From: an uncultured Spirochaetota bacterium
GTDB lineage: Bacteria; Spirochaetota; Spirochaetia; SZUA-6; Fen-1364
Length of the DNA stretch: 64,000 nucleotides
Direction of reading: 5' to 3'
Assembly (NCBI GenBank): GCA_963745235.1
Contig: CAVUXE010000062.1
Coordinates: forward strand, 1-64,000
Each line of letters starts with the position of its first letter. The first letter of the stretch is position 1. The notes under the pieces are model-generated. The model made no database searches, had not been told where the DNA came from, and saw only the letters and a list, made by a program, of their open reading frames with translations. Below, piece by piece: positions 25,989 to 50,978 of this stretch. Made by a program: the position numbers and the translations under genes.

Positions 25989-26012
25989 CGACGGGCTCCT
26001 GGGATCAAGGCC

Positions 26013-27727: not shown

Positions 27728-27728
27728 A

Positions 27729-33993: not shown

Positions 33994-34156
33994 TTCATTC
34001 CATCGGATTGACTTCGCAAGGCGGGATGGACTGTCAGGCGATATCATTGGAGCCTGTGCCGCGCCTTTTGCGGAAAATCATAGTTGTTGCCCACCGGCGA
34101 TATTCAGAGAGATATTGGAGCCTGGCTCATGCACATTTGGAAAGGAGGTAGCCTCC

Positions 34157-35521: not shown

Positions 35522-35560
35522 CGGTTCCGGCAGGCGCGGGCAGCGCCAACCAGAGGGCCC

Positions 35561-36991
35561 ATGAGCAGTCTCCGCTATATCGTAGTATCGGACCTCCACC
35601 TTGGCGCGGCGAACAGCATTCTCACGTCTCTTACACCGGATAACCGGGAAACCAGTCCAAACAAGGCCAGCGATCTTCTTGTCCAGTTCGCAGCATGTCT
35701 GCGGGACGTGGCGAGTCTCCACCAAGGCGGGCCGCGCCCCACGCTGATCTTGAACGGCGACATCCTCGAGCTTGCTTTGGCCGGGACAAACGAGGCGACA
35801 ATGGCCTTTCGCAAGTTTTTTGAGGCACTGACCGGCAACGGGGACGCCACGCAGTGGCCGTTCGACAAGAAGATCTACTACCTTCCGGGGAACCACGACC
35901 ATCACCTGTGGAATGTCGCGCGTGAGAGACAATACAGGGAGAACTACATTGCCAGGACTCGAGCGGACGAGCCCCTGAAACCCGAGTTTCAGACCACAAA
36001 CATGTTCAATGACGAGTCTCTCAAGCCGATTCCCTGCGACTACCTCGACCTGGCAGTGAAGCCACTGCAAGCCGCCTCGGATGCCTCATTTCTCACGGTC
36101 TATCCAAACTTTGCTCTTCTGAACGGCGACAAGACTCGCTGTGTCGTGTTCCATCACGGTCACTACATAGAGTCGATCTACTCTGCCATGACGGAGCTCA
36201 AGAAACTGTTCTTCCCCGCCGAAGGCTTCCCGCGAGCTATTTGGGACCTCGAGGCTGAGAACGGAGCATGGATCGATTTCTTCTGGTCCGCGCTTGGCAG
36301 GTCGGGCCAGGTGGGCCGGGATGTCGAATTGATGTACGACAAGATGCAAAGCAGCCGGGAGCTCGAAAAGGTCCTCGCGCGGTTGGCCAGGTCCCTGTCG
36401 GAGAAGATTCCTCCCCGGCAGAGATGGACATCTCTCCTCATGACCCCCGCCATGAGCTTTCTGCTCAGGCACCTGGCGGGTCCTCTCGCCGTGCGGGAAG
36501 TCCATCACACCGGTTCAGTGCTGAGCGGGGACGCGCAGCGAGGGTTGGCGAGATACATGGAGGACTACGTGCTCCGAGAAATCACCCGTATCCAGGACCT
36601 GTCAGTTCCGCGCGACATGACTTTTGTGTTTGGACATACGCACAAGCCATTTGAATCGGAGGGCAGGTTCAAAGGCTTTCCGAAGGTCACATTGCTGAAC
36701 TCGGGTGGATGGGTGGTGGATACCGCCGTTGTTTCCCCGCTGAAAGGTGGCGCCGTGATAGTGGTGGATGACGATCTGAATGTCGCTTCGCTTCGAATGT
36801 ACAACGAGCATGATCCTCGATACCCCGTGCGCGTGTGCGTTCATGCCGCTGAGGACAACCCCCTGTTTCGCGCGCTCAGCCGGTCAGTCGATCCAGCGGC
36901 GGAAACGTGGCGCAGATTCTCGGAGCTGACAGACGCCGCGGTCGACGCTCATCGACAGAACCTCTTTTTTCATATCTCAGCCCGTTCCTGA
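35561..36991 (+). CDS. calcineurin-like metallophosphoesterase
   Basis: SDLH, NGDILE, PGNHD, HHGH, FGHTH and NSGGW. Confidence 0.88.
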   Translation: MSSLRYIVVSDLHLGAANSILTSLTPDNRETSPNKASDLLVQFAACLRDVASLHQGGPRPTLILNGDILELALAGTNEATMAFRKFFEALTGNGDATQWPFDKKIYYLPGNHDHHLWNVARERQYRENYIARTRADEPLKPEFQTTNMFNDESLKPIPCDYLDLAVKPLQAASDASFLTVYPNFALLNGDKTRCVVFHHGHYIESIYSAMTELKKLFFPAEGFPRAIWDLEAENGAWIDFFWSALGRSGQVGRDVELMYDKMQSSRELEKVLARLARSLSEKIPPRQRWTSLLMTPAMSFLLRHLAGPLAVREVHHTGSVLSGDAQRGLARYMEDYVLREITRIQDLSVPRDMTFVFGHTHKPFESEGRFKGFPKVTLLNSGGWVVDTAVVSPLKGGAVIVVDDDLNVASLRMYNEHDPRYPVRVCVHAAEDNPLFRALSRSVDPAAETWRRFSELTDAAVDAHRQNLFFHISARS

Positions 36992-37077: not shown

Positions 37078-37105
37078 TTGACTTGTATACAATCCGGTAT
37101 ATAAT
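37078..37105 (+). promoter_or_regulatory. sigma70-like promoter TTGACT-N16-TATAAT containing the GntR/FadR-type palindrome TTGTATACAA
   Basis: The palindrome at 37083-37092 sits between the -35 and -10 boxes upstream of fdrA, and the cluster encodes a GntR. Confidence 0.75.
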
Positions 37106-37169
37106 GCGCTATACATCAACGATAACGTCGGATCAAGCCAGTGCCCAGACAAGCATCGAGGAGCGTACC

Positions 37170-38744
37170 GTGAAGAAGGCGATTGTCCGCAAGGATTCGT
37201 ACTTCGACTCAGTCTTTCTCATGTCATTGAGCAAGAAGCTCAAGACGCAGCCGGGCGTGTCGGACGCGGTTGTCGCCATGGGAACTGCGATGAACCTGGA
37301 GCTTCTCCGATCCCAGGGCTACGCGGCTCTCGAGCTCTCGGGGGCAGGTCCCAACGATCTGCTCATGGCGGTGGATTGCGCTGAGGAGCCTGCCGTCGAG
37401 GCGGCGTTCAAGGCGGCCGCGGATCTGCTTGCCCGCAAGCGAACGAGCTCCGGTTCCGCGGGGGGGGCGTCTCAGCCGGCCTCCATTGAAGGCGCGGTCC
37501 AGGAGATGCCGGGCGCCAACCTGGCCATCATCTCGCTGCCGGGAGCCTATGCGGCTCGAGAAGCGCGAAAGGCGCTGGAACGCGGCCTGCACGTCATGCT
37601 CTTCTCAGACAACGTCAGCCTGGAGCAGGAGATCGCCCTCAAGAAACTGGGTCGATCGAAGGGCCTGCTCGTGATGGGACCGGACTGCGGGACGGCCATC
37701 ATAAACGGGGCGCCCCTCTGCTTCGCAAATGTCGTCAGGCGCGGACCCGTGGGAGTCATCGCCGCGTCCGGCACTGGTCTGCAGGAGGTGACCTGCCTGG
37801 TGGATCGCTACGGATCGGGCATCAGCCAGGCCATTGGCACCGGCGGGCGGGATCTGAAGAACGCCCGCGTCGGGGGCATCACGATGCTCATGGGCGTGGA
37901 AGCGCTGTCCAGGGATCCAGCCACCTCCGTGATGGTCCTGGTCTCCAAGCCGCCCGCCGCAGACGTGGCGGCGAAGGTGCTGGACGCACTCGGCTCTTCC
38001 GGCAAGCCGGCCGTGGTGCTCTTCCTGGGCCTGGATCCTGCCGCAGCAGGCAAGCTGCCGCCCAACGTGCGCCTTTGCGACAGCCTGGAGGGCGCCGCCG
38101 CGCAGGCCGTCGCGTTGGCGCGCGGAACACCGCTCAGCGAATCAGAGCGGGGAGGGGAAGCGTCTTTTCTTGCAGACCTGGTCAAGCGCGAGACCAAAGG
38201 CATTGCAAAGTCCCAGCGCTACCTGCGCGGGTACTTCACGGGCGGGACGCTCGCGGACGAGGCGATGATCCTCCTGCACCGCCTGACCGGCGCAGTCCAT
38301 TCGAACAACCAGACGGACCCTGCCTTCGTCCTGAAGGACCCGAAGGTGTCCGTCGGACATACCATAGTGGATCTTGGAGACGACGTCTTCACGGTCGGCA
38401 GGCCGCACCCGATGATCGATCCGAGCACGCGCACCGAGCGCATTGCGGCGGAGACGGGAGACTCCTCCATCGCGGTCGTCCTGGTCGACGTCGTGCTGGG
38501 CTACGGATCGCACGAGGACCCGGCAGGAGCGATGCTTCCCTCCCTGGTGGAGGCGCGCCGCGCGGCCCGGGCCAGGGGCGGTTACCTGCCCGTCATTGCA
38601 TCCGTCACGGGAACCCCGGGTGATTTTCAGGGCTACGCCGGCCAGGTGGCCAAACTGGAAGCCGCAGGCTGTGTCGTCATGCCCTCCAACTATCGCGCCG
38701 CCGTCCTTGCGGCAAAAGTCCTGGAAAAGGTGGCGCCCCGATGA
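37170..38744 (+). CDS. fdrA: FdrA/YahF-family acyl-CoA synthetase-like protein
   Basis: YFDSVFLM, MGT, FSDNV, VMGPDCGT, AASGTGLQEV, GTGGRDL, GGTL, GRPHPMIDP, DVVLGYGSHEDP. Confidence 0.95.
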   Translation: MKKAIVRKDSYFDSVFLMSLSKKLKTQPGVSDAVVAMGTAMNLELLRSQGYAALELSGAGPNDLLMAVDCAEEPAVEAAFKAAADLLARKRTSSGSAGGASQPASIEGAVQEMPGANLAIISLPGAYAAREARKALERGLHVMLFSDNVSLEQEIALKKLGRSKGLLVMGPDCGTAIINGAPLCFANVVRRGPVGVIAASGTGLQEVTCLVDRYGSGISQAIGTGGRDLKNARVGGITMLMGVEALSRDPATSVMVLVSKPPAADVAAKVLDALGSSGKPAVVLFLGLDPAAAGKLPPNVRLCDSLEGAAAQAVALARGTPLSESERGGEASFLADLVKRETKGIAKSQRYLRGYFTGGTLADEAMILLHRLTGAVHSNNQTDPAFVLKDPKVSVGHTIVDLGDDVFTVGRPHPMIDPSTRTERIAAETGDSSIAVVLVDVVLGYGSHEDPAGAMLPSLVEARRAARARGGYLPVIASVTGTPGDFQGYAGQVAKLEAAGCVVMPSNYRAAVLAAKVLEKVAPR

Positions 38745-40192
38745 GCGGTACGAAAAGCAATACCTCCAGCGTCGGTCCGGTCCTCGACCTCTTCAGCGGG
38801 GAGATCAACGCGGTCAATCTTGGTCTCGAATCCTTTGCGGAGAACCTCCGGGCCAATGGCGTGGCTGCCGTCCAGGTGAGCTGGAAGCCCCCCGCGGGCG
38901 GTGACCAGGGCATGATCGCTGCCCTGGACCGTCTTTCCGCCGGGGCGAAGGTGGACATCGAAGCCGCGAACCAGGAAGCAGCGTCCCGAATTCTTTCGGG
39001 CAAGCCGACCGTTGTCGACGTCGGAACGGCAGCCGAGGTCATCCCCGGCATGACAAAGACGACCATTCTCCACGCCGGACCTCCCGTCACCTGGCAGCGC
39101 ATGTGCGGTCCGATGCGCGGGGCCGTCATCGGCGGCCTCATCTACGAAGGGCTCGCAAAAAACCGCGTGGAGGCCGAGAAGCTTGCTGCTTCGGGAGAGA
39201 TCACGTTCGAACCCTGCCATCACCACAACGCGGTGGGCCCGATGGCGGGCGTCGTAACGGCCCGCATGCCCGTATGGATCTTCGAAAACACCACCTTCGG
39301 CAATCGCGCGTATTGCACGTTCAACGAAGGCCTCGGCAAGGTGCTTCGCTACGGCGCCTTCTCGGAGGAGGTCATCGCCCGCCTGCAGTGGATCGAAACC
39401 GACCTCGCTCCTGTCATGAAGAAGACCCTTGCCCTCCACGGGCCCCTGGACATGAAGAACATCATTGCCCAGGTCCTGCAGATGGGAGACGAGGGACACA
39501 ACCGCAACCGCGCCGGTACCTCCCTCATCATTCGGGAGCTCGCCCCGTATCTCGTTCGTCTCGGCGAGGACCCCGAAAAGATAGCGAAGATCCTGTCCTT
39601 CATGCATGCCAACGACCATTTCTTTCTCAACCTCTCGATGCCCGCCTGCAAGTGCACCGTCGCTGCCGCTGAGGGCATCGAAGGGAGCTCCGTCATCACC
39701 ACCATGGCGCGCAACGGCACGGATTTCGGCATTCGGATTTCCGGGCTCGGCGATCGCTGGTTCACGGGGCCCGCCTCCATGGTGGAGGGTCTGTACCTTC
39801 CCGGTTTCGGTCCTCAGGACGCAGCGCCGGACATCGGGGATTCGGTCATCACGGAGACGGCGGGCATAGGCGGCTTTGCCATGGCGGCCGCCCCCGCCAT
39901 CGTGCAGTTTGTCGGGGGCAGCCCCGAAGACGCCGTGGCAGTCACGCGGCGCATGTACGAGATCACGGTGACGGAGAACGACGTCTACCGGATCCCCATC
40001 CTGGATTTCCGCGGCACACCGACGGCCATCGACCTTCGCAAGGTCGTGGAGACGGGCATCCTGCCGGCCATCAACACGGGCATTGCCCACAAGGAGCCCG
40101 GCGTCGGCATGGTGGGCGCCGGTCTGGTGAAGCCGCCCGAGAATTGTTTCAAGGACGCACTGGCCGCCTTTGCGGAGGCCTACTCAGAGTAA
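38741..40192 (+). CDS. DUF1116 protein (YahG/YlbE-AllG family)
   Basis: LHAGPP, MCGPMRGA, PCHHHNAVGPMAG, NEGLGKVLRYGA, MGDEGHNRN, ARNG, DIGDS, INTGIAH. Confidence 0.95.
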   Translation: MSGTKSNTSSVGPVLDLFSGEINAVNLGLESFAENLRANGVAAVQVSWKPPAGGDQGMIAALDRLSAGAKVDIEAANQEAASRILSGKPTVVDVGTAAEVIPGMTKTTILHAGPPVTWQRMCGPMRGAVIGGLIYEGLAKNRVEAEKLAASGEITFEPCHHHNAVGPMAGVVTARMPVWIFENTTFGNRAYCTFNEGLGKVLRYGAFSEEVIARLQWIETDLAPVMKKTLALHGPLDMKNIIAQVLQMGDEGHNRNRAGTSLIIRELAPYLVRLGEDPEKIAKILSFMHANDHFFLNLSMPACKCTVAAAEGIEGSSVITTMARNGTDFGIRISGLGDRWFTGPASMVEGLYLPGFGPQDAAPDIGDSVITETAGIGGFAMAAAPAIVQFVGGSPEDAVAVTRRMYEITVTENDVYRIPILDFRGTPTAIDLRKVVETGILPAINTGIAHKEPGVGMVGAGLVKPPENCFKDALAAFAEAYSE

Positions 40193-40203
40193 GGAGGAAT
40201 CGC

Positions 40204-41079
40204 ATGAAAATCATCGATCTGACCGTTCCCCTCGGCATCGGCACGCCTCCCTGGCCGACCTACATCCCGCTGCAAGTCCAGTATTTCAAGCGCCTCGCGC
40301 CAAACGGCGCCAACGGCCAGGTCGTCACGCATTCCAACCACGTGGGGACCCACCTCGACGGAGAGATCCATTTCTACACACCCGGCAAGGACATCGCGAG
40401 CCTCACCATGGATTTCCTCGTCCACGACGGCGCCGTTGTGGATCTCTCCGATGTCTGCGGGGACTACGATGTCTATACCTCCAAGATGGTGGAGGAGCGC
40501 GTCGAGGTGAAGGAAGGTGACATTCTCATCATCCACACCGGCTTCCATCACTATGGGTGGGACCAGCCGACCGCGGACGAGGTGCGCTACATGATCAAGC
40601 ACCCGGGGCCGGACCGCGAGTTCGCGGAGTGGGCGAAGAAAAAGAAGCTGCGCTGGATCGGCGTGGACTGCGGCTCCGCCGACCACCCCATGAACACGAA
40701 GATCAAGGAGTGGATGCCGGTGCAGGCCAAGGAGTGCGACGAGCATTTCAAGGCGAAGTACAAGAAGTCCCTGGATGACTTCTTCACCCCGGATAAGTAC
40801 CAGCTCATGCACATCGAGATGTTCAACAAAGGGCTCATCCACGCGGAATGCGTCGGGGGGGACCTTGACCTGCTGCTCAACCAGCGAGCAACCATCGGCT
40901 GCTTCCCCTGGCGCTTCGTCGACGGGGAGTCCAGCATCTCCCGCATTGTCGCCCTGGTCGAGGACAAGCGCTACGACGAGCTCATGGCGAAAAAGAAGAA
41001 GGCAGAGCTCACCCGGTTCGGGGATGTCGCGGGAGCGAAAAACCCCTGGCTTCATGAAGAGGCAAAAAAGACACGGTGA
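40204..41079 (+). CDS. cyclase-family (KynB-like) metal-dependent amidohydrolase
   Basis: HVGTHLDGEIH (HxGTHxDxxxH), GDILIIHTG, GVDCGSAD, IHAE. Confidence 0.92.
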   Translation: MKIIDLTVPLGIGTPPWPTYIPLQVQYFKRLAPNGANGQVVTHSNHVGTHLDGEIHFYTPGKDIASLTMDFLVHDGAVVDLSDVCGDYDVYTSKMVEERVEVKEGDILIIHTGFHHYGWDQPTADEVRYMIKHPGPDREFAEWAKKKKLRWIGVDCGSADHPMNTKIKEWMPVQAKECDEHFKAKYKKSLDDFFTPDKYQLMHIEMFNKGLIHAECVGGDLDLLLNQRATIGCFPWRFVDGESSISRIVALVEDKRYDELMAKKKKAELTRFGDVAGAKNPWLHEEAKKTR

Positions 41080-41127
41080 GCCGAGACCTCTGATCTCACA
41101 CCACCACACATCAGGAAGGAGTATTTC

Positions 41128-41821
41128 ATGGCTATTGACGAACTCGAAAAAAAGCTTCGGCCGCCCGAGGTCCAGCTCGCGCCATATCCGTCCAAGGTCA
41201 TCACCCTTGCCTCCGGCGAGCTCATGGTCGTCCGCGAGTGCAGGCGTGAGGAGGCCGGCGTTCTCCTGGGAACGGTCTATCCCCTCCTGGGAGTGGCGAA
41301 GGACTTCTACGACATTGTCGCCGCGCGCATGTACAACGAGATCCTCGCGTGGTTCCGCTACCGCATTTCGAACGAGTTCGTCCTGGTAGGCGCGATCAAG
41401 GGCGAGATCGCGGGAATCGTCACGAGCCGCCACGTGGACCCGAAGCTCGGCATGAGCCTCCACACCCTTGCGATCAAGCGCGGCCTTCGCGTCGGCGCCC
41501 AGCTTTTTGCCTCCAAGATGGAGCACCACATCGAGTATCTCAAGGAAGACGAGGTCTGGATCGTCGCCGAGAGCCCCATCGGCTTCAAGCGCTGGATGAT
41601 CGAGTACGAGCTGGAGGACCGCTCCGCGCAGTACCCCGCCGTCCGCCACGAGCTCGGCGGAGTGCCCACCTACGCCCTCACCCGCAAGCTCTGGGACGCG
41701 GTCAAGAGCGTGAAGTGCACGGGCACGCGGCCCGTGCCCACCGGAGGTCCTCAAGACCGCCAGCAAGCTCACCATGCCGAACGAGTATGTACAGCTGCCA
41801 GGCTGGAAGAGGAATGCCTGA
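41128..41821 (+). CDS. GNAT-fold protein; a +1 indel near 41740 makes it appear fused to the next gene
   Basis: HTLAIKRGLRVGAQLF resembles GNAT motif A. The shifted frame reads PEVLKTASKLTMPNEYVQLPGWKRNA* and ends in a TGATG overlap. Confidence 0.65.
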
Positions 41822-43020
41822 TGGCGCCACGGGTCGGGATCGTCGGCGCCGGCCACTGCAGATTCGGCAACTCGAGCGATTATGACGTGGTGGACGTCAT
41901 CGCCTATTCGGTAAACGCGGCCTTCAGGGACGCGGGCGGTCTCAATCTGCGGAAGGAGGTCGACCAGGTTTTCGTTGCCAACATGGCAGCGGGCCTTTTC
42001 AACAGGGAGACCGCCCTGGCATCCGCGGTGATCAGCAGGATGGACATGGAGCCCTGCCCGGCGGAGCTCGTTGAAAACGGCCCGGCATCCGGCGCCAGCG
42101 CGGTCAAGCTCGGGTACATGGCCATTGCCTCGGGGATGGCGGACGTGGTGCTGGTTGCCGGCGGTGAGGTCATGCGCTCCGTCACCGGCTGGGAATCAAC
42201 CGACATTGTGGCAACAATGGCCCACAAGGAAGCGGAGTACAACATGGGCCTCACGCTTCCGGGCTTCGCGGGGATGTTCACGCGTCTGTACATGGAGAGG
42301 TACGGCTTGACGGAGAGGGACCTCGCCCTTGTGGCCGTGAAGGACCACGACAACGCGGCGAAGAACACCTACGCGCACGTGCAGATCCCCGTGACAATCG
42401 ACGCGATAGCAGATGGACCCAACGCGGACGTGGTCAACAATTACGTCGCGGAGCCCCTGCGCATGTATTCGACCTGTCCGGTCACGGATGGGTCCGCGGC
42501 GCTCATCCTCGTGAACATGGACTCGCCGAAGGCGAAGCTTTTCAAGAAGAAGCCGATCAGGATCGCCGGCATAGCCTCCGCGACGGATACCCACTGCGTC
42601 CACAACCGCAAGGACCCGCTGGTGCTCGACGCGGTGCGGCTCTCCGCGGAGAAGGCGTACACGATGGCGGGGATCGGCCCCAAGGACATTTCATTCGCGG
42701 AGCTCCATGATGCCTTCGTGATCTTCGAGCTCATCGTCAGCGAGGAAGTGGGTTTCTTCGAGCGCGGCACGTCCTTCCTCGCGGTGCGCAGGCATGAGAC
42801 GGACCTGAACGGACGGCTGCCCATCAACACCTCCGGCGGGCTCAAGGCGAAGGGTCATCCGGTGGGCGCCACGGGGGTCTCCCAGATCTTCGAGCTGGTG
42901 CGGCAGCTTCGAGGAGAGGCGGAGGAGGGTCGCCAGGTGAAGGACCCCAGGTATGGCATGGCGGTCAACTTCGGCGGATTCGGCAACAACGTCGTGACCA
43001 CGATCCTGGCCAGGGACTAG
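41821..43020 (+). CDS. SCP2/archaeal-type thiolase-fold protein lacking the nucleophilic Cys
   Basis: ENGPASG in place of ExxCASG, PVTDGSAA, ELHDAF, NTSGGLKAKGHPVGATG, NFGG. Confidence 0.9.
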   Translation: MAPRVGIVGAGHCRFGNSSDYDVVDVIAYSVNAAFRDAGGLNLRKEVDQVFVANMAAGLFNRETALASAVISRMDMEPCPAELVENGPASGASAVKLGYMAIASGMADVVLVAGGEVMRSVTGWESTDIVATMAHKEAEYNMGLTLPGFAGMFTRLYMERYGLTERDLALVAVKDHDNAAKNTYAHVQIPVTIDAIADGPNADVVNNYVAEPLRMYSTCPVTDGSAALILVNMDSPKAKLFKKKPIRIAGIASATDTHCVHNRKDPLVLDAVRLSAEKAYTMAGIGPKDISFAELHDAFVIFELIVSEEVGFFERGTSFLAVRRHETDLNGRLPINTSGGLKAKGHPVGATGVSQIFELVRQLRGEAEEGRQVKDPRYGMAVNFGGFGNNVVTTILARD

Positions 43021-43031
43021 AGAGGGCAAGC

Positions 43032-43415
43032 ATGGTTGATTTCAGCGTCTATGGCGAGCAGACTCCCCATATCAGCGCGTTCCGTTGCGAGAAATGCGGG
43101 ACGCTGTACTACCCGGCTCCCATGGTCTGTCGGAAGTGCGACTCGATCCGGGATCCGACGACCAACAAGGGCTGGGAAGAGTTCGATCTGGAGGGGCCGT
43201 GCACACTGCTCACCTGGACACGCGTGTGGAACCTGCCCGAAGGGTTCAACAGGAAGTTCCTCATGTTCGGGATGGTGGAGTTCGAAAACGGCCTGCGCGC
43301 CTCCGGACGCGTCGAGATGGAGGGTGATCCGCAGATAGGGATGAAGCTCACCGCCACGACAATCGAGGCTGATGAGCGTCCCGGCAAGCCCGTGAAGGTC
43401 TTCGTTTTTTCCTGA
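43032..43415 (+). CDS. DUF35 Zn-ribbon/OB-fold protein (thiolase partner)
   Basis: CEKCG.LYYPAP.VCRKC followed by an OB-fold; adjacent to the thiolase-like gene. Confidence 0.9.
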   Translation: MVDFSVYGEQTPHISAFRCEKCGTLYYPAPMVCRKCDSIRDPTTNKGWEEFDLEGPCTLLTWTRVWNLPEGFNRKFLMFGMVEFENGLRASGRVEMEGDPQIGMKLTATTIEADERPGKPVKVFVFS

Positions 43416-43569
43416 CGTCGGTCATCGTGGATGCCCGCCGTCGACTGGTGGTCGAAAACTTAGCGGCCGAAGGAGGACACAAGGCTCGAATTCCGTCCCA
43501 TTCATGGGGACGGCGAAACGCGCCGGCACGGCCAGGGCCGTAGACCGACGCACACACACGGAGGCATCC

Positions 43570-44814
43570 ATGGCTCATTTCGCGAAGATCTACGACATCG
43601 AACAGACGCCGCCCATCGGGAGGGCAATCCCCCTCTCTTTCCAGCACGTTTTTGCGATGTTCGGCGCGACCATCCTCGTGCCCCTGCTCACGGGGCTCGA
43701 TCCCTCGGTCACCCTGTTCTGTTCCGGGCTGGGCACCATCATTTTCCACCTGGTCAACAAGGGGAAGGTCCCGGCCTATCTTGGCTCTTCCTTTGCGTTC
43801 ATCGCGCCCATCATCGCTGTCTCCAAGGTCTATGGAGCGCAGGGGGCCTTCACCGGCATGATCGCCGCGGGCCTCGTGTACGTCGTCGTCTTCGTCATCA
43901 TTGCGATTGTCGGACTCAAGTGGATTGCCCGCGTCCTTCCGCCGGTGGTCGTCGGGCCAATCGTGATGATCATCGGTCTCAGCCTTACCCCGGTTGCCAT
44001 TCAGGAAGCGGAAACGGGGCTGATCACCGCCATGATCACCGCTCTCATCGTCATCTTCGCCGCCATCTTCGGGAAGGGGTTCTTCAAGATCATCCCGATC
44101 CTGCTCGGCACGGTGGGCGGCTACATTGTGGCCGTCCTCTTCGGACAGGTGAAGTTCGACGCGATCAACAGCGCGGCGTGGATAGCCCTGCCGCACCTCA
44201 CCATCGTCACCGGCCACCTGCCCATCCTTGCATGGGGGGCTGTAGCGCTCATCGCGCCGGTCGCAATCGCGACGATGGTCGAAGACGTCGGCCACCTCCT
44301 CGTGATCGGGGACACGGTGGAGCGCGACCTGATGCACAACCCGGGCTTGCACAAGGTCCTTCTGGGCAACGGTATTGCGACCGCGGTCGCCGGCTTCCTG
44401 GGCGGAGTCCCTGAGACGACCTACGGTGAGAACATCGGCGTCCTTGCCATCACGCGCGTTTTCTCCTCCCGCGTCATCCAGGGGGCAGCGGTCATCGCGA
44501 TCCTCCTCAGCTTCATCCAGAAGTTCGGCGCGGCCATCCAGACCATCCCGCAGCCGGTTCTGGGCGGTGTAACGATCATCCTCTACGGCATGATCGCATC
44601 CGTGGGCCTGCGGACGCTGATCGAGAACAAGGTGAACATGGCCAGTAACCGCAACCTTCTCATCGTGTCAGTCATCTTCTCCTTCGGTGTCGGCGGCATC
44701 GTCTTCAAGTTCGGCCCCGACTTTGCATTCGCAGGGATTGCATCCGCTGCGATTGCCGGCATCATTCTCAACCTGATTCTGCCCCCGGATAAGGAGAGCG
44801 AGGCAAAGGCCTAG
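43570..44814 (+). CDS. NCS2 nucleobase permease (UraA/PyrP-like)
   Basis: QHVFAMFGATILVP, YLGSSFAFI, TTYGENIGVLAITRV, IPQPVLGG. Confidence 0.94.
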   Translation: MAHFAKIYDIEQTPPIGRAIPLSFQHVFAMFGATILVPLLTGLDPSVTLFCSGLGTIIFHLVNKGKVPAYLGSSFAFIAPIIAVSKVYGAQGAFTGMIAAGLVYVVVFVIIAIVGLKWIARVLPPVVVGPIVMIIGLSLTPVAIQEAETGLITAMITALIVIFAAIFGKGFFKIIPILLGTVGGYIVAVLFGQVKFDAINSAAWIALPHLTIVTGHLPILAWGAVALIAPVAIATMVEDVGHLLVIGDTVERDLMHNPGLHKVLLGNGIATAVAGFLGGVPETTYGENIGVLAITRVFSSRVIQGAAVIAILLSFIQKFGAAIQTIPQPVLGGVTIILYGMIASVGLRTLIENKVNMASNRNLLIVSVIFSFGVGGIVFKFGPDFAFAGIASAAIAGIILNLILPPDKESEAKA

Positions 44815-44907
44815 AACGCCTTCTCAGCCGCGCTCGCGCGGCGCAAGGCGCGCGGGACCCGCCGTCCCCTGGCGACGGGTCCTGCATTCCAGGCCCTGAG
44901 CTCGAAT

Positions 44908-45579
44908 ATGGCCAAAGCAAGCCTGAGTCAACCCATCTACACGCAGCTCTCAGAGCGGATCCTCCGCTGGGACTACCTTCCCGGGCATCGCTTCACCGAA
45001 GAGGGACTGTGCAGGGAGTTCGGGGTCAGCCGAAGTCCCATCCGCGAGGCCCTCAACACGCTTGCGGAGAACGGGCTGATCGAGAAAAGGCACGGCCATG
45101 GCTACAGCGTGAAGGTCCTCAATATCGTTGAGATAAACGAGCTCTACGACGTCCGTATCGCGCTGGAGACCTATGTCGTGGAGACGATCTGCAGGGTCGG
45201 CATGGATGACAGGCACCTCAAGGAGCTCACCTCGTTCTGGTCAAGCATCCATTCACGTTTGCCGGAGATGGCGAAGGCCGTGGCGGCGGCGGACGAGGAT
45301 TTCCACGAGACCCTCGCCAAGCTCACCGGGAACACGACCCTCGCCAGCACGCTGAAGAGCGTCGACCGGCGGATCCATTTTGTCCGTCTGGCGGATATCA
45401 CCACGGAGGAGCGCGTGCGCGCGACGTGTCTCGAGCACCTGGAGCTTCTTGCCGCCATCCGTGACAGGAATGCGGCGCGAGCCCGCGAGGTCCTCCGACA
45501 GAACATCGAGGGGGGCCGGTCTTCCGTCGAACGAGCGATCAAGGACGCTTTGGCGCATGCCTACCATGCCCGCGAATGA
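44908..45579 (+). CDS. GntR (FadR/FCD) family regulator
   Basis: PG.R..E..L..EFGVSRSPIREAL..L; FCD motifs DEDFH, GN and EH. Confidence 0.94.
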   Translation: MAKASLSQPIYTQLSERILRWDYLPGHRFTEEGLCREFGVSRSPIREALNTLAENGLIEKRHGHGYSVKVLNIVEINELYDVRIALETYVVETICRVGMDDRHLKELTSFWSSIHSRLPEMAKAVAAADEDFHETLAKLTGNTTLASTLKSVDRRIHFVRLADITTEERVRATCLEHLELLAAIRDRNAARAREVLRQNIEGGRSSVERAIKDALAHAYHARE

Positions 45580-46516
45580 GATCATGGTCCGGGCACTCTC
45601 TGTCGGGGCCGCCGCCTCGGCGGCGCTTTCTAGCGCGGGAGCCGGGCTCCGCGTCCACAGCGTATTCCGCTCCACCATGAATCTTGAAGTTGAAGGGACG
45701 GACATCCTGGTCGCATTGGCCGGGCCGCAGGGCGTTCGTTATCCCCACACGGTGGTTCTTGGCAACGACGAGGACTTCCTGACGTGGCCGCACCCGGTCG
45801 GCAGCGGCGGCTCCCGGGAGGGTACCTGCATTCGCCTCTGCCACCAGGACAACAGGCGAACCGTGGACCTCGGTCGGGCGCGAAGGCGGCGCCGGCGGAT
45901 TCTTCCTTCGGTCCGTATTCCTGGACCTGTGTACAACGCCTGCGCGCTCAGGCTTTCCGAGCTCCAGGCGGATCTTGGCTGCGACCTTCGTCTGCGCGGG
46001 CCGGGAGCCCTGACCGGGGCATCAACGGTCATGGGAAAGTCTCTTTGTCGTTCCGCCCTTGCACTCGGCGCGGCCGCTTCGGCAGACAGAGCATCGGCCG
46101 CGGCCGTTCGTCTGGCAACCGTCTCCCTGGTTGGAGCAGGAGGCGGTCTCACCCCCTCGGGGGATGATTTCCTGTGCGGCTTCATAGCTGCCGCGCGCTG
46201 CTCGGGAGAGCAGCAGACGCACGAGGGGTCCGCTCTCGTCCTGACGTTGGCTGAGGCCATCCAGGAGGTCATCCGGTCGACAGGCGAAATAAGCGCGTCG
46301 CTCCTTCGATGCGCGCTGGGGGGGCACTGGCCCGCGCCACTGGCGGACCTGGCGGAAGCCCTTTCCGCGGAGCGTGAGCCCGAAGCGCTCCGCGCTCTTG
46401 GGGATCTGTGCGGACTCGGACACAGTTCGGGTGCCGACATCGCGACCGGCTTCCTGTACGGCCTCCACGTCCTGGATGGCGCGGGGCAGGGAAGGTCGCG
46501 GCAGTCCGTTGGATAG
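45566..46516 (+). CDS. DUF2877 protein (YahE/YlbF-AllH family)
   Basis: VHSVF..T.NL, LVGAGGGLTPSGDDFLCG, GHSSGADIATG. Confidence 0.92.
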   Translation: MPANEIMVRALSVGAAASAALSSAGAGLRVHSVFRSTMNLEVEGTDILVALAGPQGVRYPHTVVLGNDEDFLTWPHPVGSGGSREGTCIRLCHQDNRRTVDLGRARRRRRRILPSVRIPGPVYNACALRLSELQADLGCDLRLRGPGALTGASTVMGKSLCRSALALGAAASADRASAAAVRLATVSLVGAGGGLTPSGDDFLCGFIAAARCSGEQQTHEGSALVLTLAEAIQEVIRSTGEISASLLRCALGGHWPAPLADLAEALSAEREPEALRALGDLCGLGHSSGADIATGFLYGLHVLDGAGQGRSRQSVG

Positions 46517-46530
46517 GAAGAGGAGGCACT

Positions 46531-47346
46531 ATGTTGCAGAGGTTTCAGTACGCGGCGCCGGCAACCCGGGCAGAGCTTTTCAGCCTGCTGGGCGAAAAGA
46601 AGGGCAGGGCGCGGCTTCTTGCGGGAGGGACCGACCTTCTGGTCAACATCCGCAACGGGGTGATGAAGCCTGAGCTGGTGATCGACATCAAGAAGGTCAA
46701 GGGTTATTCCGGGATATCCTGGAGCTCCTCCGAGGGCCTCGTCATCCGTCCCGCCGTTACGATCAACGAGGTCCTGCAGGACAAGGAGGTACGGGACCGG
46801 TACCCGCTCCTCGCAGAGTGCGCGCACGACCTCGCATCGTACCAGATCCGCAACAGGGCAACCGTCATCGGCAACGTCGTCAACGCATCACCCTGTTCGG
46901 ACATGGCTCCCGCGCTTCTCTGCCTGAACGGAAAAGCCGTGATCGCTTCCGCCCGCGGGGAGCGTGAAGTTCCTTTCGCTGAGTTTTTCAAAGGGGTCAA
47001 GAAGACCGTCGTCCAGGACGACGAGGTCCTTGACCGCATCGTGGTCCCCGCCTCCTCGGTCGGAGCGCGCGGCTCCTATCGAAAGCTGAAGAGAATCAAC
47101 GGGCACGACCTCGGAATCGTCGGGGTGGCGCTCATGAGACAGGACGGTACCCTCCGCCTCGGCATCAGCTCCTCCGCGCCCACGCCGGTTCTCGTGGACG
47201 GCCTCAAGGAGCGTGATGATGCGGAGAAGGTCGTGGCGGCCGCCCGCAAAGCCATCAGCGCCATCAGCGACGTGCGCTGCTCAAAAGAATACCGGGAATA
47301 CATGGTCGAGGTGTACGTCAGGCGGCTTCTCGCGGAGGTGCGGTAA
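46531..47346 (+). CDS. molybdenum hydroxylase (XDH family), FAD-binding subunit
   Basis: LLAGGTDL, SYQIRNRATVIGNVVNASPCSD, ISDVRCSKEYR. Confidence 0.94.
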   Translation: MLQRFQYAAPATRAELFSLLGEKKGRARLLAGGTDLLVNIRNGVMKPELVIDIKKVKGYSGISWSSSEGLVIRPAVTINEVLQDKEVRDRYPLLAECAHDLASYQIRNRATVIGNVVNASPCSDMAPALLCLNGKAVIASARGEREVPFAEFFKGVKKTVVQDDEVLDRIVVPASSVGARGSYRKLKRINGHDLGIVGVALMRQDGTLRLGISSSAPTPVLVDGLKERDDAEKVVAAARKAISAISDVRCSKEYREYMVEVYVRRLLAEVR

Positions 47347-47837
47347 TGAAGATACGAGTTACAGTCAACGGCCGGGTCTATGAACGCGACGTGGAGGAGC
47401 ACACAACCCTCATCCGATTCCTCCGCGAGGACCTGGGATTGACGGGCACCAAGGAAGGCTGCGGCGCCGGCGAATGCGGCGCGTGCACGGTGTTCCTGGA
47501 TGGCAAGACCGTCAATTCCTGCATGGTGCTGGCCGTGGAGACCAACGGATCCACCGTGGAAACGATCGAGGGCGAGGCGAAGGAGGGCAAGCTCTCCGTG
47601 ATCCAGGAGGCTTTCGACCGGCACCACGCGGTCCAGTGCGGCTACTGCACCGCGGGAATGGTCATGTCCGTGCGTGAGCTGCTGCGGCGAACGCCGAAGC
47701 CCACGGTGGACCAGGTCAAGGAAGGCATCGAAGGCAATTTCTGCCGCTGCACCGGCTATCAGCAGATCATCGAAGCCGTTCTCGACGCTTCGGGACAGCC
47801 GGAACTCGCCAATAAGGGGGAGCTGAAACATGCTTAA
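47346..47837 (+). CDS. molybdenum hydroxylase, 2Fe-2S subunit
   Basis: GTKEGCGAGECGACTV, NSC, QCGYC, GNFCRCTGY. Confidence 0.96.
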   Translation: MKIRVTVNGRVYERDVEEHTTLIRFLREDLGLTGTKEGCGAGECGACTVFLDGKTVNSCMVLAVETNGSTVETIEGEAKEGKLSVIQEAFDRHHAVQCGYCTAGMVMSVRELLRRTPKPTVDQVKEGIEGNFCRCTGYQQIIEAVLDASGQPELANKGELKHA

Positions 47838-50283
47838 GAAAATGGATCCCAGGGAACTTGCCCACGTGGGCAAGGGCGAGCGGCGTCTGGAAGCCATCGC
47901 GAAGGTGACGGGGGACGCCGTGTTCACGAGCGACATGGCCTTCCCCGGAATGCTCTCCGCCCAGGTGAAGAAGAGCCCTCACGCCCGCGCACGAATCCTG
48001 AAAATCGACGTCTCGAAGGCGGAGGCCCTGCCGGGCGTTCGCGCGGTCCTCGTGGGCGCCGAGCTCAACTACAAGCTGGGGTTGTACGTCGTGGACAAGG
48101 ACATCCTCGCCAAGAACGAAGTCCGCCACTACGGCGAGGCAGTCGCCGGGGTCGCCGCTGACACCCCCGAGATTGCGCGCGCGGCGGTTGACCTCATCCA
48201 GGTGGACTACGAGCCTCTCCCGCCCGTGCTCAACCACATGGATGCTCTCAAGCCCGACGCTCCTCTCGTGCATCCCGATCTCGGGACGTATGACTACGTT
48301 CCCGTCTTCAGCCCCCAGCCGCACACCAATATCCCCAACCTCTCCCGTACCCGCAAGGGAGACGTGGAAAAGGGCTTCGCCGAATCCGAGTGGATCATTG
48401 AGCGCGAATACACCAATCCCTCGGTTCAGCATGTGCCAATGGAAACCCACGTCGCCATTGTCGAGTGGAACAACGGAGACGAGATCACGATCTGGACGAG
48501 CGCGCAGTCGCCGTTCACCGTGCGCAACCTCTTCTGCTACACTTTCAAGCTCCCGCTCAACAAGGTCCGGGTGATCGTCCCCCACGTCGGCGGTGGTTTC
48601 GGCGGCAAGGCGGGCATTCACCTCGAGCCGCTGGCCGCCTGCCTCTCGCGGAAAGCCGGCGGCATGCCGGTCAAGCTGCAGGCCTCGCGCGAGGAGGAGT
48701 TCAGCCTCCTCCCCTGCAGGAGCGCCCTGACGTACAGGATCAAGACCGGCGTGCGCGCGGACGGAAAGATTCTTGCCCAGCACCTCACCCTGTATTGGGA
48801 CGCGGGCGCGTATGCAGACTACGCGGTCAACGTCACGCGCGCCTCCGCGTACTCGGGCGCCGGGCCCTACGAGGTGCCGAACGTCTGGCTGGATGCCTAC
48901 ACGATCTACACGAACAAGCCCTACGGGACGGCCTATCGCGGGTTCGGGCACGTGGAGTTCTTCTGGGGACTCGAGCGCCACATGGAGCTCATTGCGGTGG
49001 CCATCGGAATGGACCCGCTGGAGTTCAGAAAGAAGAACCTGCTCAAACCCGGATCGGTCACCATCACCGGCGAGCTCATCACGGAGCACACGGGGAGCCC
49101 GACAAAGTGCCTGGATGCCGTGGCGAAGTCAATCAATTACGGTTCGCTGACCAGGGAAGAGTCCGCGCGGGAAAAGCGAACCGGGCGCAAGATCGGCAAA
49201 GGCATCGCCACCCTTCACAAGGCGCCGGCAATGCCCTCGTTTACTGCCACTGCTGCCGTGGTCAAGATGAACTCCGACGGCTCCGTCATCGTCAACGTCG
49301 GCCTCACGGAGATCGGCCAGGGTTCAGCCACCGCGGTGGCACAGATCGCCGCGGAGCGGCTGCGCTTTCCCATGGCGAAGGTGAAGGTCGCGATTGAGAA
49401 GGACACCGACAAGGAGCCCTACGACTGGCAGACCGTCGCTTCCAAGGGGATCATCCTCACGGGCAACGCGACCATCCTGGCCTGCGACGACATGCTGAGG
49501 CAGGCGTATGACGTTGCCGCGCAGGTCCTTCGCGCACAGCCCATGGACCTCGACCACGACGATGAAAGGATTTTCATCAAGCACCATCCCCAGAGCTCGG
49601 TCAGCTTCGCCGCGATATCCGTGGGCTACGCCTACCCGAACGGCAACGCAATTGGCGGCCCCCTCATCGGTGTCGGGCGCTACATGGCGCAGGGCCTCAC
49701 GAACCTGGACAAGGAGACCGGGCAGGGACTTCCCGCCCTGGACTGGACCTACGGCGCCCACGGAGTGATCGTGGAAGTCGACCCCGACACGGGCGAGTAC
49801 AAGGTGATCAAGGTTGCGTCGGCTTTCGATGTCGGGCGGGTCATCAATCCCGATATCGTGCGCGGGCAGGCTATCGGCGGCATGATCCAGGGGCTGGGAA
49901 CTGCGACCTGCGAGGGCTACATCTACGACGAGGCCGGGCACCTGCTCAACCCCTCGTTTACGGACAACAAGATCCCCACGGCCAAGGACCTGCCGGAGGA
50001 GATCGAGAGCATCGCGGTGGAGGTCGCGCAGCTGGACGGCCCCTTCGGCGCGCGGGGCGTCGGAGAGCACCCGATGATCTCGGTGGCGCCGGCTCTCGGC
50101 AACGCCATTCAGCAGGCGGTTGGTGCGCTGCTTCTCCATATGCCCATCCGCTTCGAGGACGTGTGGAGGGCGCTTCGCAAGAAAGAGCCGATCGACAACT
50201 GGATCACGAAGACGCCGACGGGCTCCTGCCGTTCCGACGCCGCGGCACGGCTTCATTCGCCGGACCACGCGGCGGCGCCCTGA
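47830..50283 (+). CDS. molybdenum hydroxylase, molybdopterin-binding subunit
   Basis: KVTG, GGGFGGK, AYRGFG, IGQG, GQ..GG..QGLG and the catalytic GVGE. Confidence 0.96.
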   Translation: MLKKMDPRELAHVGKGERRLEAIAKVTGDAVFTSDMAFPGMLSAQVKKSPHARARILKIDVSKAEALPGVRAVLVGAELNYKLGLYVVDKDILAKNEVRHYGEAVAGVAADTPEIARAAVDLIQVDYEPLPPVLNHMDALKPDAPLVHPDLGTYDYVPVFSPQPHTNIPNLSRTRKGDVEKGFAESEWIIEREYTNPSVQHVPMETHVAIVEWNNGDEITIWTSAQSPFTVRNLFCYTFKLPLNKVRVIVPHVGGGFGGKAGIHLEPLAACLSRKAGGMPVKLQASREEEFSLLPCRSALTYRIKTGVRADGKILAQHLTLYWDAGAYADYAVNVTRASAYSGAGPYEVPNVWLDAYTIYTNKPYGTAYRGFGHVEFFWGLERHMELIAVAIGMDPLEFRKKNLLKPGSVTITGELITEHTGSPTKCLDAVAKSINYGSLTREESAREKRTGRKIGKGIATLHKAPAMPSFTATAAVVKMNSDGSVIVNVGLTEIGQGSATAVAQIAAERLRFPMAKVKVAIEKDTDKEPYDWQTVASKGIILTGNATILACDDMLRQAYDVAAQVLRAQPMDLDHDDERIFIKHHPQSSVSFAAISVGYAYPNGNAIGGPLIGVGRYMAQGLTNLDKETGQGLPALDWTYGAHGVIVEVDPDTGEYKVIKVASAFDVGRVINPDIVRGQAIGGMIQGLGTATCEGYIYDEAGHLLNPSFTDNKIPTAKDLPEEIESIAVEVAQLDGPFGARGVGEHPMISVAPALGNAIQQAVGALLLHMPIRFEDVWRALRKKEPIDNWITKTPTGSCRSDAAARLHSPDHAAAP

Positions 50284-50302
50284 CGCCGAAGGGGAGTGGA
50301 AG

Positions 50303-50978
50303 GTGGAGCACACAACGGGCTGCGACTGCATCGTGCTTGCCGCCGGCGCCTCCCGGCGCATGGGACGGTGCAAGCTCTACCTTCCCTTCGGGACAGGGAC
50401 CCTCATCGAGACGACAGTCGGCAATGCGCGCTCGGCAGGGCTGCGCGTGATTGTGGTGACGCGCAAGGAAGATGAGCGCATATCCGCCCTGCTTGGCGCC
50501 GAGGTCACGGTGGTCCGCAACTCCAACCCTGAGCGGGGCATGGCGTCGTCCCTCAGGGAAGGAGCGCGGCAGGTAACCGCGGAGCGCTTCTTCTTCATCC
50601 CCGCGGACATGCCCTTTGTTGGCGGGGATGTCTACCTCATGTTGGCGGCCATCAACTCGGCGGGGCCGGTGATTCCCACAGCGGACGGCAGGCGAGGCCA
50701 TCCGGTCCCTCATGCCCTCCACTCTCATTCCCGCAATCATGGATCTCCCGGATGATGTGCCCCTCAAGGAGTTGATCTCCGCAAGCGGACCGATGTTGGT
50801 CGACGTGGCAGACACATCGATCCTGCGAGACATCGACACGTCGGAGGAGTATGAAGTCGCAACCGGCGGGGTCCTTCCCGCGGCCACGGAAGGCCCCTTC
50901 GCCGGGCGCGCGGCACGAACGGAAATTCAGCGCAGCTTCATGTTCGCACCCAATACTGCTCATGGAGGTAAAGCATGA
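50303..50978 (+). CDS. MocA-like molybdenum cofactor cytidylyltransferase, frameshift near 50710
   Basis: VLAAGASRRMG, GMASSL, PADMP, RRGHPV; DIDT..EY in the next frame. Confidence 0.88.

Follow-up and report, generated by a model that had tools for sequence, protein, structure and literature searches.

The window analysed here is a stretch of 64,000 nucleotides from an uncultured Spirochaetota bacterium, whose genome is 86% complete and lies in 104 contigs. It contains a gene cluster in which an enzyme trio of the FdrA/AllG/AllH type stands beside a molybdenum (Mo) hydroxylase, a cyclase-family amidohydrolase, a nucleobase permease and a thiolase-fold protein that lacks its catalytic cysteines. 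We discuss below the evidence that this cluster may serve the oxidative breakdown of pyrimidines. Genes were called with Pfam and NCBIfam models, which bear out the 13 gene types named in an earlier note on this DNA: all are on the plus strand and densely packed, with small intergenic gaps or overlaps between neighbours. The bounds given in that note, 37078-50978, hold in part: 37078 marks the first hexamer of a promoter-like site, but no gene starts there, and the last gene stops at 50755. The features are as follows.

37078..37105, plus strand: sigma-70-like promoter site, TTGACT-16-TATAAT (11/12 matches)
37170..38744, plus strand: FdrA/AllF-like subunit, succinyl-CoA-synthetase-alpha-like (NF004760; longest open reading frame from 36996)
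38741..40192, plus strand: AllG/DUF1116-like subunit (PF06545, 337 bits)
40204..41079, plus strand: cyclase-family (KynB-like) metal-dependent amidohydrolase, the proposed ring opener (PF04199, 106 bits)
41128..41821, plus strand: GNAT-fold protein of a small unnamed family (predicted fold), frame broken by one extra base near 41736-41745
41821..43020, plus strand: thiolase-fold protein without either catalytic cysteine (Pfam thiolase domains and alignment)
43032..43415, plus strand: DUF35 zinc-ribbon/OB-fold partner protein (zf-ChsH2)
43504..44814, plus strand: NCS2 nucleobase permease, nearest to uracil permease (Xan_ur_permease, 314 bits; alternative start 43570)
44908..45579, plus strand: GntR/FCD transcription regulator (Pfam)
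45584..46516, plus strand: AllH/DUF2877-like subunit (PF11392, 85 bits; longest open reading frame from 45380)
46531..47346, plus strand: Mo-hydroxylase FAD subunit, CoxM-like (FAD_binding_5)
47346..47837, plus strand: Mo-hydroxylase [2Fe-2S] subunit, CoxS-like (Fer2 and Fer2_2)
47830..50283, plus strand: Mo-hydroxylase molybdopterin subunit, CoxL-like, of no curated subfamily (three Mo-hydroxylase domains)
50303..50755, plus strand: short MocA/MobA-like nucleotidyltransferase for Mo-cofactor maturation (NTP_transf_3, 109 bits)

Inspection of start codons and ribosome sites places the likely start of FdrA at GTG 37170, behind GAGGAG, and the likely starts of the cyclase, AllH, CoxM and MocA-like genes at 40204, 45584, 46531 and 50303, respectively. 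Two near-consensus sigma-70-like sites were seen in the 15-kb region, where 2.2 are expected; what favours a promoter at 37078 is therefore solely that the site lies just ahead of the first gene. The cluster is flanked by two metallophosphoesterase genes upstream, and by minus-strand open reading frames without a Pfam match and a flavoprotein gene downstream. The upstream pair are tandem genes of about 470 amino acids each with calcineurin-like phosphoesterase domains (34115-36991). The flanking genes are not kept beside the cluster in any of the 80 related loci described next, and the unit is therefore taken to run from 37078 to 50755.

The 80 loci are the best 80 of 565 relatives found with an alignment of the GNAT-fold protein in a scan of one genome per species. 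The gene set around FdrA and DUF1116, which the earlier note supposed to belong together, is conserved well past this genome: nine core genes are complete in 39 of the 80 loci; of the 41 loci that have long flanks, 31 hold all nine. By tblastn, presence is highest for thiolase (77 loci) and DUF35 (74), followed by the cyclase (56), AllG (54), FdrA (52), CoxM (51), CoxS (50), CoxL (45), GntR (31; 35 by clustering), permease (24) and the MocA-like gene (7). AllH is weakly conserved, with 15 loci by tblastn, and 33 and 9 loci in two clusters obtained by clustering and Pfam-checked on examples. The GNAT-fold, thiolase and DUF35 genes, which we call the triad, stand alone in 6 of the 41 long-flank loci. 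The loci carry at least eight phylum labels: Spirochaetota, Myxococcota (Anaeromyxobacter), Acidobacteriota, Caldiserica, Eisenbacteria, Alphaproteobacteria, Bacillota (Moorella, Clostridium) and Coriobacteriales. Three modules, FdrA-AllG-cyclase, GNAT-thiolase-DUF35 and (AllH)-CoxMSL, are arranged in at least four orders, and Clostridium sp. HCS.1 has them in a compact row of PucR, AllH, FdrA, AllG, cyclase, GNAT, thiolase, DUF35, CoxM, CoxS, CoxL and permease. Recurrence across phyla in several orders puts the cluster beyond chance.

Within the phylum, an independent search with the cyclase gave matches in 20 of 401 genomes and 14 of 153 genera, and the triad lay beside the cyclase in 8 of the 12 contexts fetched. 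The GNAT-fold gene is present in 7 of 41 close relatives. The AllG tree is incongruent with taxonomy. Patchy occurrence and a tree that cuts across taxonomy indicate that the cluster is an accessory, mobile unit.

FdrA, DUF1116 (AllG) and DUF2877 (AllH) families are all encoded in the cluster, as in the AllFGH system of E. coli. The FdrA protein has CoA_binding and Ligase_CoA domains and exceeds the cut-off of NF004760 (520 bits, cut-off 433). It is 42% identical to E. coli YahF and 42% to AllF, and the AllG protein is 49% identical to YahG and 48% to AllG. In the AllG tree, E. coli AllG, YahG and the second paralogue of this genome are on long branches (2.27, 1.79 and 2.4), and the fork that separates them is weak (79/90). 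A report on the E. coli proteins describes AllFGH as a purified oxamate carbamoyltransferase that produces carbamoyl phosphate from oxalurate (PMC11326118). By analogy, the window trio very probably also frees carbamoyl phosphate from an N-acylurea. Pfam found no allantoin-pathway domain among the cluster genes of the window. Carbamate kinase, listed as missing in the earlier note, is indeed not encoded in the window, but it lies within the cluster in 11 (by clustering) to 13 of the 80 loci, and one gene is present elsewhere in this genome. The cluster copies follow AllH directly in the two loci inspected (L022 and L027), and all four that were tested exceed the TIGR00746 cut-off. The only carbamate-kinase-like gene of this genome is on another contig (G000:C29:194700-195633; L095/L103). 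A second AllG-FdrA pair, 41-49% identical to that of the window, is found on the minus strand at G000:C3 ~25780-28750 (L142 7780-10751); its surroundings showed no cyclase, triad or Cox gene.

The cyclase-family protein follows AllG directly in most loci that have both genes, the exceptions being L136 and L169. It scores well below the arylformamidase equivalog TIGR03035 (41.5 bits, cut-off 223), and 33 bits against the solved kynurenine formamidase KynB. It carries a His-rich stretch, HSNHVGTHLDGEIHF, which we take to be the metal motif of the family. There is no barbiturase of the AtzD/TrzD family among the cluster genes by Pfam; the barbiturase model TIGR02714 had no match in the whole genome, but it had none in 14 control genomes either and is uninformative.

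The three Cox genes have the architecture of a three-subunit Mo/FAD/[2Fe-2S] hydroxylase by Pfam. The CoxL protein scores 499 bits on XdhA (cut-off 780), 424 on pucD (784), 324 on xdhB (850) and 480 on the 4-hydroxybenzoyl-CoA reductase model (995), and it is also below the cut-off of the CO dehydrogenase model. It retains the glutamate in GVGEHP, presumably the catalytic base of hydroxylases. An Ala follows its GGGFGGK motif, where xanthine dehydrogenases, if we number the position correctly, should have a substrate-binding Glu. The MocA-like protein reaches 108 bits on TIGR03310, whose cut-off is 186.

The cluster permeases lend independent support to the earlier suggestion of a pyrimidine substrate. 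Permeases of three of the six cluster loci tested pass the cut-off of 477 bits for the uracil permease equivalog NF007995 (L091, 600 bits; L056, 561; L085, 643), but that of the window stays below it. In all six, the uracil permease or RutG score is higher than the xanthine permease score; the window permease has 298 bits on RutG and 204 on pbuX.

The thiolase-fold protein has Thiolase_C_1 (143 bits) and Thiolase_N (88 bits) domains and is nearest to archaeal-type thiolases (7yvy, 253 bits; 6esq, 217 bits). The label "Cys-less" given to it earlier is correct. The nucleophile site reads ENGPASG where the canonical sequence is EAACASG, with Pro for Cys in 80 of 80 homologues, and the HDCF position reads HDAF in 72 of 80, HDPF in 4 and a gap in 4. 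His296 and His346, the two oxyanion-hole histidines, are retained. Judging from its sequence, the protein is unable to make the acyl-enzyme that a genuine thiolase makes. The earlier note had the carbon skeleton cleaved as a CoA ester by the thiolase-fold, DUF35 and GNAT proteins; with neither catalytic cysteine present, thiolytic cleavage by the standard mechanism is impossible. Decarboxylation of a malonyl thioester would fit better. A DUF35 gene comes after that of the thiolase in 74 of 80 loci, and the zinc-ribbon cysteines of its product (C19, C22, C33 and C36) are invariant. A prediction of the complex of thiolase, DUF35 and GNAT-fold proteins scored 0.01 against a mark of 0.32, which is evidence neither way.

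The third member of the triad has no Pfam or NCBIfam match, and a search of the PDB sequences with its profile returned chance matches to ribosomal proteins only. A structure model was made from an intact homologue (L017) that is 86% identical to the protein of the window. The AlphaFold model has a pLDDT of 89.6 and a pTM of 0.88, and Foldseek gave 210 PDB matches at E <= 0.001, headed by GNATs with probability 1.00 and a TM score of 0.47-0.52. Neighbours in the ESM Atlas carry automatic N-acetyltransferase names. The unnamed protein is thus assigned as a GNAT by its predicted fold only. A conserved R-G-L-R-x-G-A stretch sits where the acyl-CoA pyrophosphate-binding motif is expected; its fit is inexact to Q/R-x-x-G-x-G/A, which we take to be the GNAT pattern for that motif. 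The family is a small, tight one: among 1.84 billion representatives, a profile search picked out 218 proteins, most of them fragments, and identity across phyla is still 57-88%. A distant paralogue (39% identity) occurs in L012 (11284-12009) and in L011/L105, 6 kb from the variant cluster G038 described below and on the opposite strand. It adjoins an oligopeptide-type ABC transporter, with no thiolase or DUF35 gene beside it.

As assembled, the GNAT-fold gene of the window reads in frame into the thiolase gene, giving a single open reading frame of 630 amino acids, of which the first 200 are GNAT-like and the last 399 are thiolase. The gene is separate in 78 of 80 relatives, where it encodes 213-236 amino acids, mostly ending in ...PGxKR; in the other two it is cut by contig ends. 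An ending of this type is present in the window, but in another frame only. Alignment with four relatives locates an extra base in the G run of the window near 41741-41746, and a peat metagenome contig (X2, depth 4) is one base shorter than the window at 41736. The carbamate-kinase gene of this genome is likewise split over two frames (model positions 2-245 and 241-307). Both split genes are probably due to indels of the assembly or the strain and not to a true fusion, and the second one hints at indel errors in this assembly.

The function of the triad can be approached through sister clusters in which other modules take its place. In G155 the triad is missing; after the cyclase gene come those of a CoA-transferase of family III (450 bits) and of an amidase (202 bits). 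A class-wide search with this amidase gave matches in 23 of 401 genomes. Among the 11 contexts fetched, the amidase is accompanied by the CoA-transferase, right beside it, in 10, by the cluster-type cyclase in 9, by FdrA and/or AllG in 7, by CoxLMS in 3 and by the triad in none; conversely, a family-III CoA-transferase of the G155 type is present in none of the 80 triad loci. The nearest solved structure to the variant amidase is malonamidase E2 (147 bits), followed by GatA (130 bits), and that to the variant CoA-transferase is YfdE (367 bits), with chains deposited as formyl-CoA transferase also near.

Two variant clusters, G038 (L104/L012) and G698 (L171), contain a carboxyltransferase of the mmdA subfamily (Carboxyl_trans), a biotin carrier and the beta subunit of a Na+ pump (507 bits versus 190 on TIGR01109), and G038 additionally has the gamma subunit. 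The G698 row comprises permease, FdrA, AllG, cyclase, CoA-transferase, amidase, decarboxylase and CoxLMS. In the AllG tree, the AllG proteins of G038 and G155 are nested in the starred clades of triad-type clusters; this nesting of both variant types indicates module swaps inside one pathway. The modules that replace the triad suggest what the triad achieves. From them we infer that the trio delivers an amide, which then undergoes hydrolysis, activation with CoA and decarboxylation by a biotin enzyme; malonamate, malonate and malonyl-CoA, or their methyl homologues, answer this description. The earlier guess of ureidomalonate and malonamate as intermediates is thereby backed by a malonamidase-like amidase, a dicarboxylate-type CoA-transferase and a Na+ pump of the (methyl)malonyl-CoA-decarboxylase type. 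A lone OAD_beta gene (Na+-pump beta) upstream of the cluster in Bacillota loci (L076 5836-6972, L077 and L078) was set outside the cluster, as there is no carboxyltransferase; its neighbours are an ammonium transporter/P-II fusion and a beta-lactamase-like gene.

A model has been assembled from these parts. With somewhat more confidence than doubt, we read the locus as an oxidative, ATP-conserving catabolic cluster of anaerobes for pyrimidines, uracil and/or thymine. Gene content and conservation are the observations from which we infer each of the chemical steps. The UraA-like permease would import the base, and the Mo-hydroxylase, matured with the MocA-like protein, would hydroxylate it at C6 to (5-methyl)barbiturate. 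The cyclase-family metal hydrolase would open the ring to ureido(methyl)malonate. The FdrA/AllG/AllH enzyme would then carry out phosphorolysis of this N-acylurea to carbamoyl phosphate and (methyl)malonamate; malonamate is expected because it is what remains after phosphorolysis of ureidomalonate, the ring-opened form of barbiturate. Carbamate kinase, whose gene some genomes have in the cluster and this one has at another place, would use carbamoyl phosphate to make ATP. The triad would turn the amide into acetyl-CoA (or propionyl-CoA), CO2 and NH3, as a one-module equivalent of the amidase, CoA-transferase and decarboxylase of the sister clusters. We guess that the malonyl thioester is made by the GNAT-fold protein and decarboxylated by the Cys-less thiolase, which would thereby pull the first step. 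Malonyl decarboxylases with a GNAT fold and with a cysteine-free thiolase fold are known, and the thiolase/HMG-CoA synthase/DUF35 complex is a precedent for coupling an uphill to a downhill step. GntR, or PucR in Clostridium, would regulate the cluster.

Several observations weigh against this model. On the side of the substrate, CoxL is under every curated equivalog cut-off, and its nearest solved structure is 4-hydroxybenzoyl-CoA reductase and no nucleobase hydroxylase, in a comparison that lacked a known uracil dehydrogenase sequence. The window permease has 405.6 bits on NF007995, short of the cut-off; a permease is present in just 24-28 of the 80 loci; and that of G038 is xanthine-permease-like (pbuX 218 bits versus uracil permease 87). 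The Clostridium clusters have a regulator of the PucR family, which is named for purine catabolism. Two genes of the D-hydantoinase/dihydropyrimidinase family are above cut-off in this genome (G000:C37:230767-232122 and C29:160570-161934), and a reductive pyrimidine or hydantoin route may coexist in it. On the side of the later steps, oxalurate is the sole proven substrate of any FdrA trio. Malonamidase E2 is only modestly ahead of other amidases, YfdE is, as we understand it, an oxalate enzyme, and the mmdA-type carboxyltransferase of G038 has 797 bits, under the cut-off of 998.8. In 9 of the 80 loci the triad is found together with an amidase or CN-hydrolase, so that it may start from the acid, malonate, and not from the amide. 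The GNAT-fold gene of the window is, moreover, frameshifted as assembled. Finally, an FdrA-AllG fusion is found apart from the triad in three of the five Verrucomicrobiota/Lentisphaerae genomes checked. It adjoins the cyclase in both loci fetched, and no Mo-hydroxylase lies beside FdrA-AllG-cyclase in the one locus that was Pfam-annotated; in these organisms hydroxylation may be optional or encoded elsewhere.

Some of the same observations can be read differently. Another cyclic ureide, with a five-membered ring of the hydantoin or parabanate type or derived from allantoin, could be opened to oxalurate, and the downstream module would then handle oxamate and oxalate as oxalyl-CoA. This would agree with the proven substrate of the trio and with the nearness of the variant CoA-transferase to YfdE and formyl-CoA transferase chains, both of which we assume to act on oxalate, and an amidase with a CoA-transferase would suit conversion of oxamate to oxalate and oxalyl-CoA. 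We nevertheless hold it to be distinctly unlikely. By the established mechanism of biotin enzymes, the mmdA-type decarboxylases in two variant clusters need a 2-carboxyacyl-CoA, such as malonyl-CoA or methylmalonyl-CoA, and not oxalyl-CoA. The variant amidase is nearest to malonamidase E2, the thiolase fold binds thioesters of the acetyl/malonyl type, and cluster permeases reach the uracil-permease equivalog. There are no allantoin genes among the cluster genes of the window, and the cluster AllG is as distant from E. coli AllG as from YahG. Substrates of the nicotinate, quinoline and indole types were also considered and rejected, as they offer no ureido group to a trio that forms carbamoyl phosphate and to carbamate kinase.

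A purine, such as xanthine, urate or a relative, is a less probable substrate still. The Mo-hydroxylase would then be a xanthine dehydrogenase, and the other enzymes would process a ureido-imidazole intermediate. XdhA is the best NCBIfam model of CoxL, but the score is far under its cut-off, and Ala replaces the Glu that we believe binds the substrate in xanthine dehydrogenases. The PucR-family regulators adjoining the Clostridium clusters and the pbuX-like permease of G038 point to purines, whereas all six permeases tested prefer the uracil or RutG models to pbuX. The cluster also has too few enzymes for dismantling an imidazole ring, and an end module of the malonyl type would be unexpected for a purine. 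That the operons of the FdrA trio, the thiolase and the Mo-hydroxylase merely lie side by side by chance, without a common pathway, we find hardly credible. The modules can separate, as in the triad-only loci and in Verrucomicrobiota, where FdrA-AllG-cyclase stands alone, and a regulator gene interrupts the cluster of the window. Against this, the loci that unite them bear eight or more phylum labels and show four or more module orders, and the AllG tree departs from taxonomy in the way that a cluster moving as a unit would produce. In addition, gaps are short or genes overlap, and two gene junctions are crossed by RNA-library contigs.

The pyrimidine model can also be extended, into a bolder version that is possible though doubtful. 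The cluster would then represent an undescribed fermentation of uracil or thymine by oxidation, present in many phyla and gaining ATP twice, from carbamoyl phosphate and from acetyl-CoA. The triad would be a new enzyme machine, and the FdrA trio would belong to a general family of "N-acylurea phosphorylases" with several substrates. In this version the GNAT-fold protein would run N-acyl transfer backwards, from malonamate and CoA to malonyl-CoA and NH3, and the cysteine-free thiolase, held by DUF35, would pull this uphill step through decarboxylation of malonyl-CoA. One soluble complex would stand in for amidase, CoA-transferase and decarboxylase.

Several known systems resemble the cluster in part. 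It shares the FdrA, DUF1116 and DUF2877 families with E. coli AllFGH and AllK of the anaerobic allantoin pathway, and it would share their logic, in which an N-acylurea is cleaved with phosphate and the ureido group ends as ATP. Unlike AllFGH, to which the proteins of the window are just 42%, 48% and 34% identical (they are equally far from the uncharacterised YahF and YahG), the trio here shares its cluster with a Mo-hydroxylase, a hydrolase of the cyclase family and a CoA module, and not with allantoin genes, and its proposed substrate is ureidomalonate and not oxalurate. The uncharacterised yahEFG-yahI-yahJ cluster of E. coli has by annotation FdrA-like, DUF1116 and DUF2877 genes beside carbamate-kinase-like and amidohydrolase genes, and thus the same design of ring hydrolase, trio and kinase. 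However, YahJ is of the amidohydrolase family and not a cyclase, the yah cluster has neither a Mo-hydroxylase nor thiolase, DUF35 or GNAT genes, and identity is 42-49%.

The aerobic oxidative pyrimidine pathway of actinobacteria consists of uracil/thymine dehydrogenase, barbiturase and ureidomalonase. The proposed pathway resembles it in that oxidative hydroxylation comes first and barbiturate and ureidomalonate are intermediates. In contrast to it, the window cluster has no barbiturase (AtzD/TrzD family) or ureidomalonase, ring opening being given to the cyclase-family enzyme; the ureide would not be hydrolysed to urea but kept as carbamoyl phosphate; the carbon would end as a CoA thioester; and the carriers of the cluster are anaerobes. 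For the triad, the closest parallels are the archaeal thiolase/HMG-CoA synthase/DUF35 complex, BbsAB, Ltp2-ChsH2 and PhlABC, where DUF35 also follows the thiolase and the gene of a third enzyme is fixed alongside. The triad differs from the archaeal complex in having Pro for the nucleophilic Cys and Ala for the Cys of HDCF, and a GNAT fold as third partner in place of HMG-CoA synthase; a complex of the triad proteins is putative. The families of Na+-translocating (methyl)malonyl-CoA decarboxylases and malonamidase E2 replace the triad in sister clusters; none of them is in the window, and the triad is not homologous to them.

Metagenomes of 12 studies, from soil, peat, wetland and sediment, contain the window stretch, the habitats being named from runs that hold half or more of its words. 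The suggestion that the genes are co-transcribed gains support from RNA-library contigs of two peat metatranscriptome runs (one study), which cover six genes and two junctions. Near-identical contigs lie on FdrA, the cyclase, the GNAT-fold gene, the thiolase and the permease; one (42966-43217) spans the thiolase/DUF35 junction, and another (43357-43565) runs from DUF35 over the intergenic region towards the permease. RNA libraries can contain DNA, and such contigs are no proof of single transcripts. The AllG, GntR, AllH and Cox genes have no RNA-contig cover, which says nothing about their expression.

The breakdown of pyrimidines in anaerobes is known as a reductive route. The oxidative route, a pathway of aerobic actinobacteria, has received little study, and the genes of its dehydrogenase are not well defined. 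As had been supposed, the gene combination matches no characterised pathway in the searchable full-text literature, where an anaerobic oxidative pyrimidine route is also undescribed (subscription journals and supplements were outside the search). We class the cluster as a combination of known kinds, oxidative pyrimidine catabolism and ureide cleavage yielding carbamoyl phosphate, with at least one new enzyme system. If the pyrimidine model is true, it would add a nucleobase sink in anoxic habitats that couples uracil oxidation to substrate-level phosphorylation. It would also provide a second substrate for the recently identified FdrA/AllG/AllH enzyme class, and functions for a cyclase-family hydrolase, an unnamed GNAT-fold family and a cysteine-free thiolase/DUF35 pair. 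Should FdrA trios be general N-acylurea phosphorylases, this would be a lead for E. coli YahEFG. Cultured carriers of the cluster exist, so each step is directly testable; they include Sphaerochaeta halotolerans 4-11, Gracilinema caldarium, Clostridium sp. HCS.1, C. lamae, C. rhizosphaerae and Neomoorella stamsii.

A few minor observations concern individual loci. Eight loci of Verrucomicrobiota/Lentisphaerae (L029, L030, L033, L038, L039, L048, L057 and L058) have the triad alone with a divergent CN-hydrolase gene. An apparent second Mo-hydroxylase set on the plus strand of Verrucomicrobiota loci was rejected, having no Pfam match; these frames are shadows of minus-strand TPR genes. In one complete genome (L132, G368:C1:657300-677299) the cluster looks decayed: it has DUF35 but only parts of FdrA, the cyclase and CoxL, and the GNAT-fold and thiolase genes are absent. 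Two adjacent small open reading frames (132 and 162 amino acids), with no Pfam or NCBIfam match, recur by the cluster in four loci other than the window (L104 6862-7794, L014 5066-5822, L016 5020-5796 and L059 54-809), and in L104 and L014 they come right after the permease.

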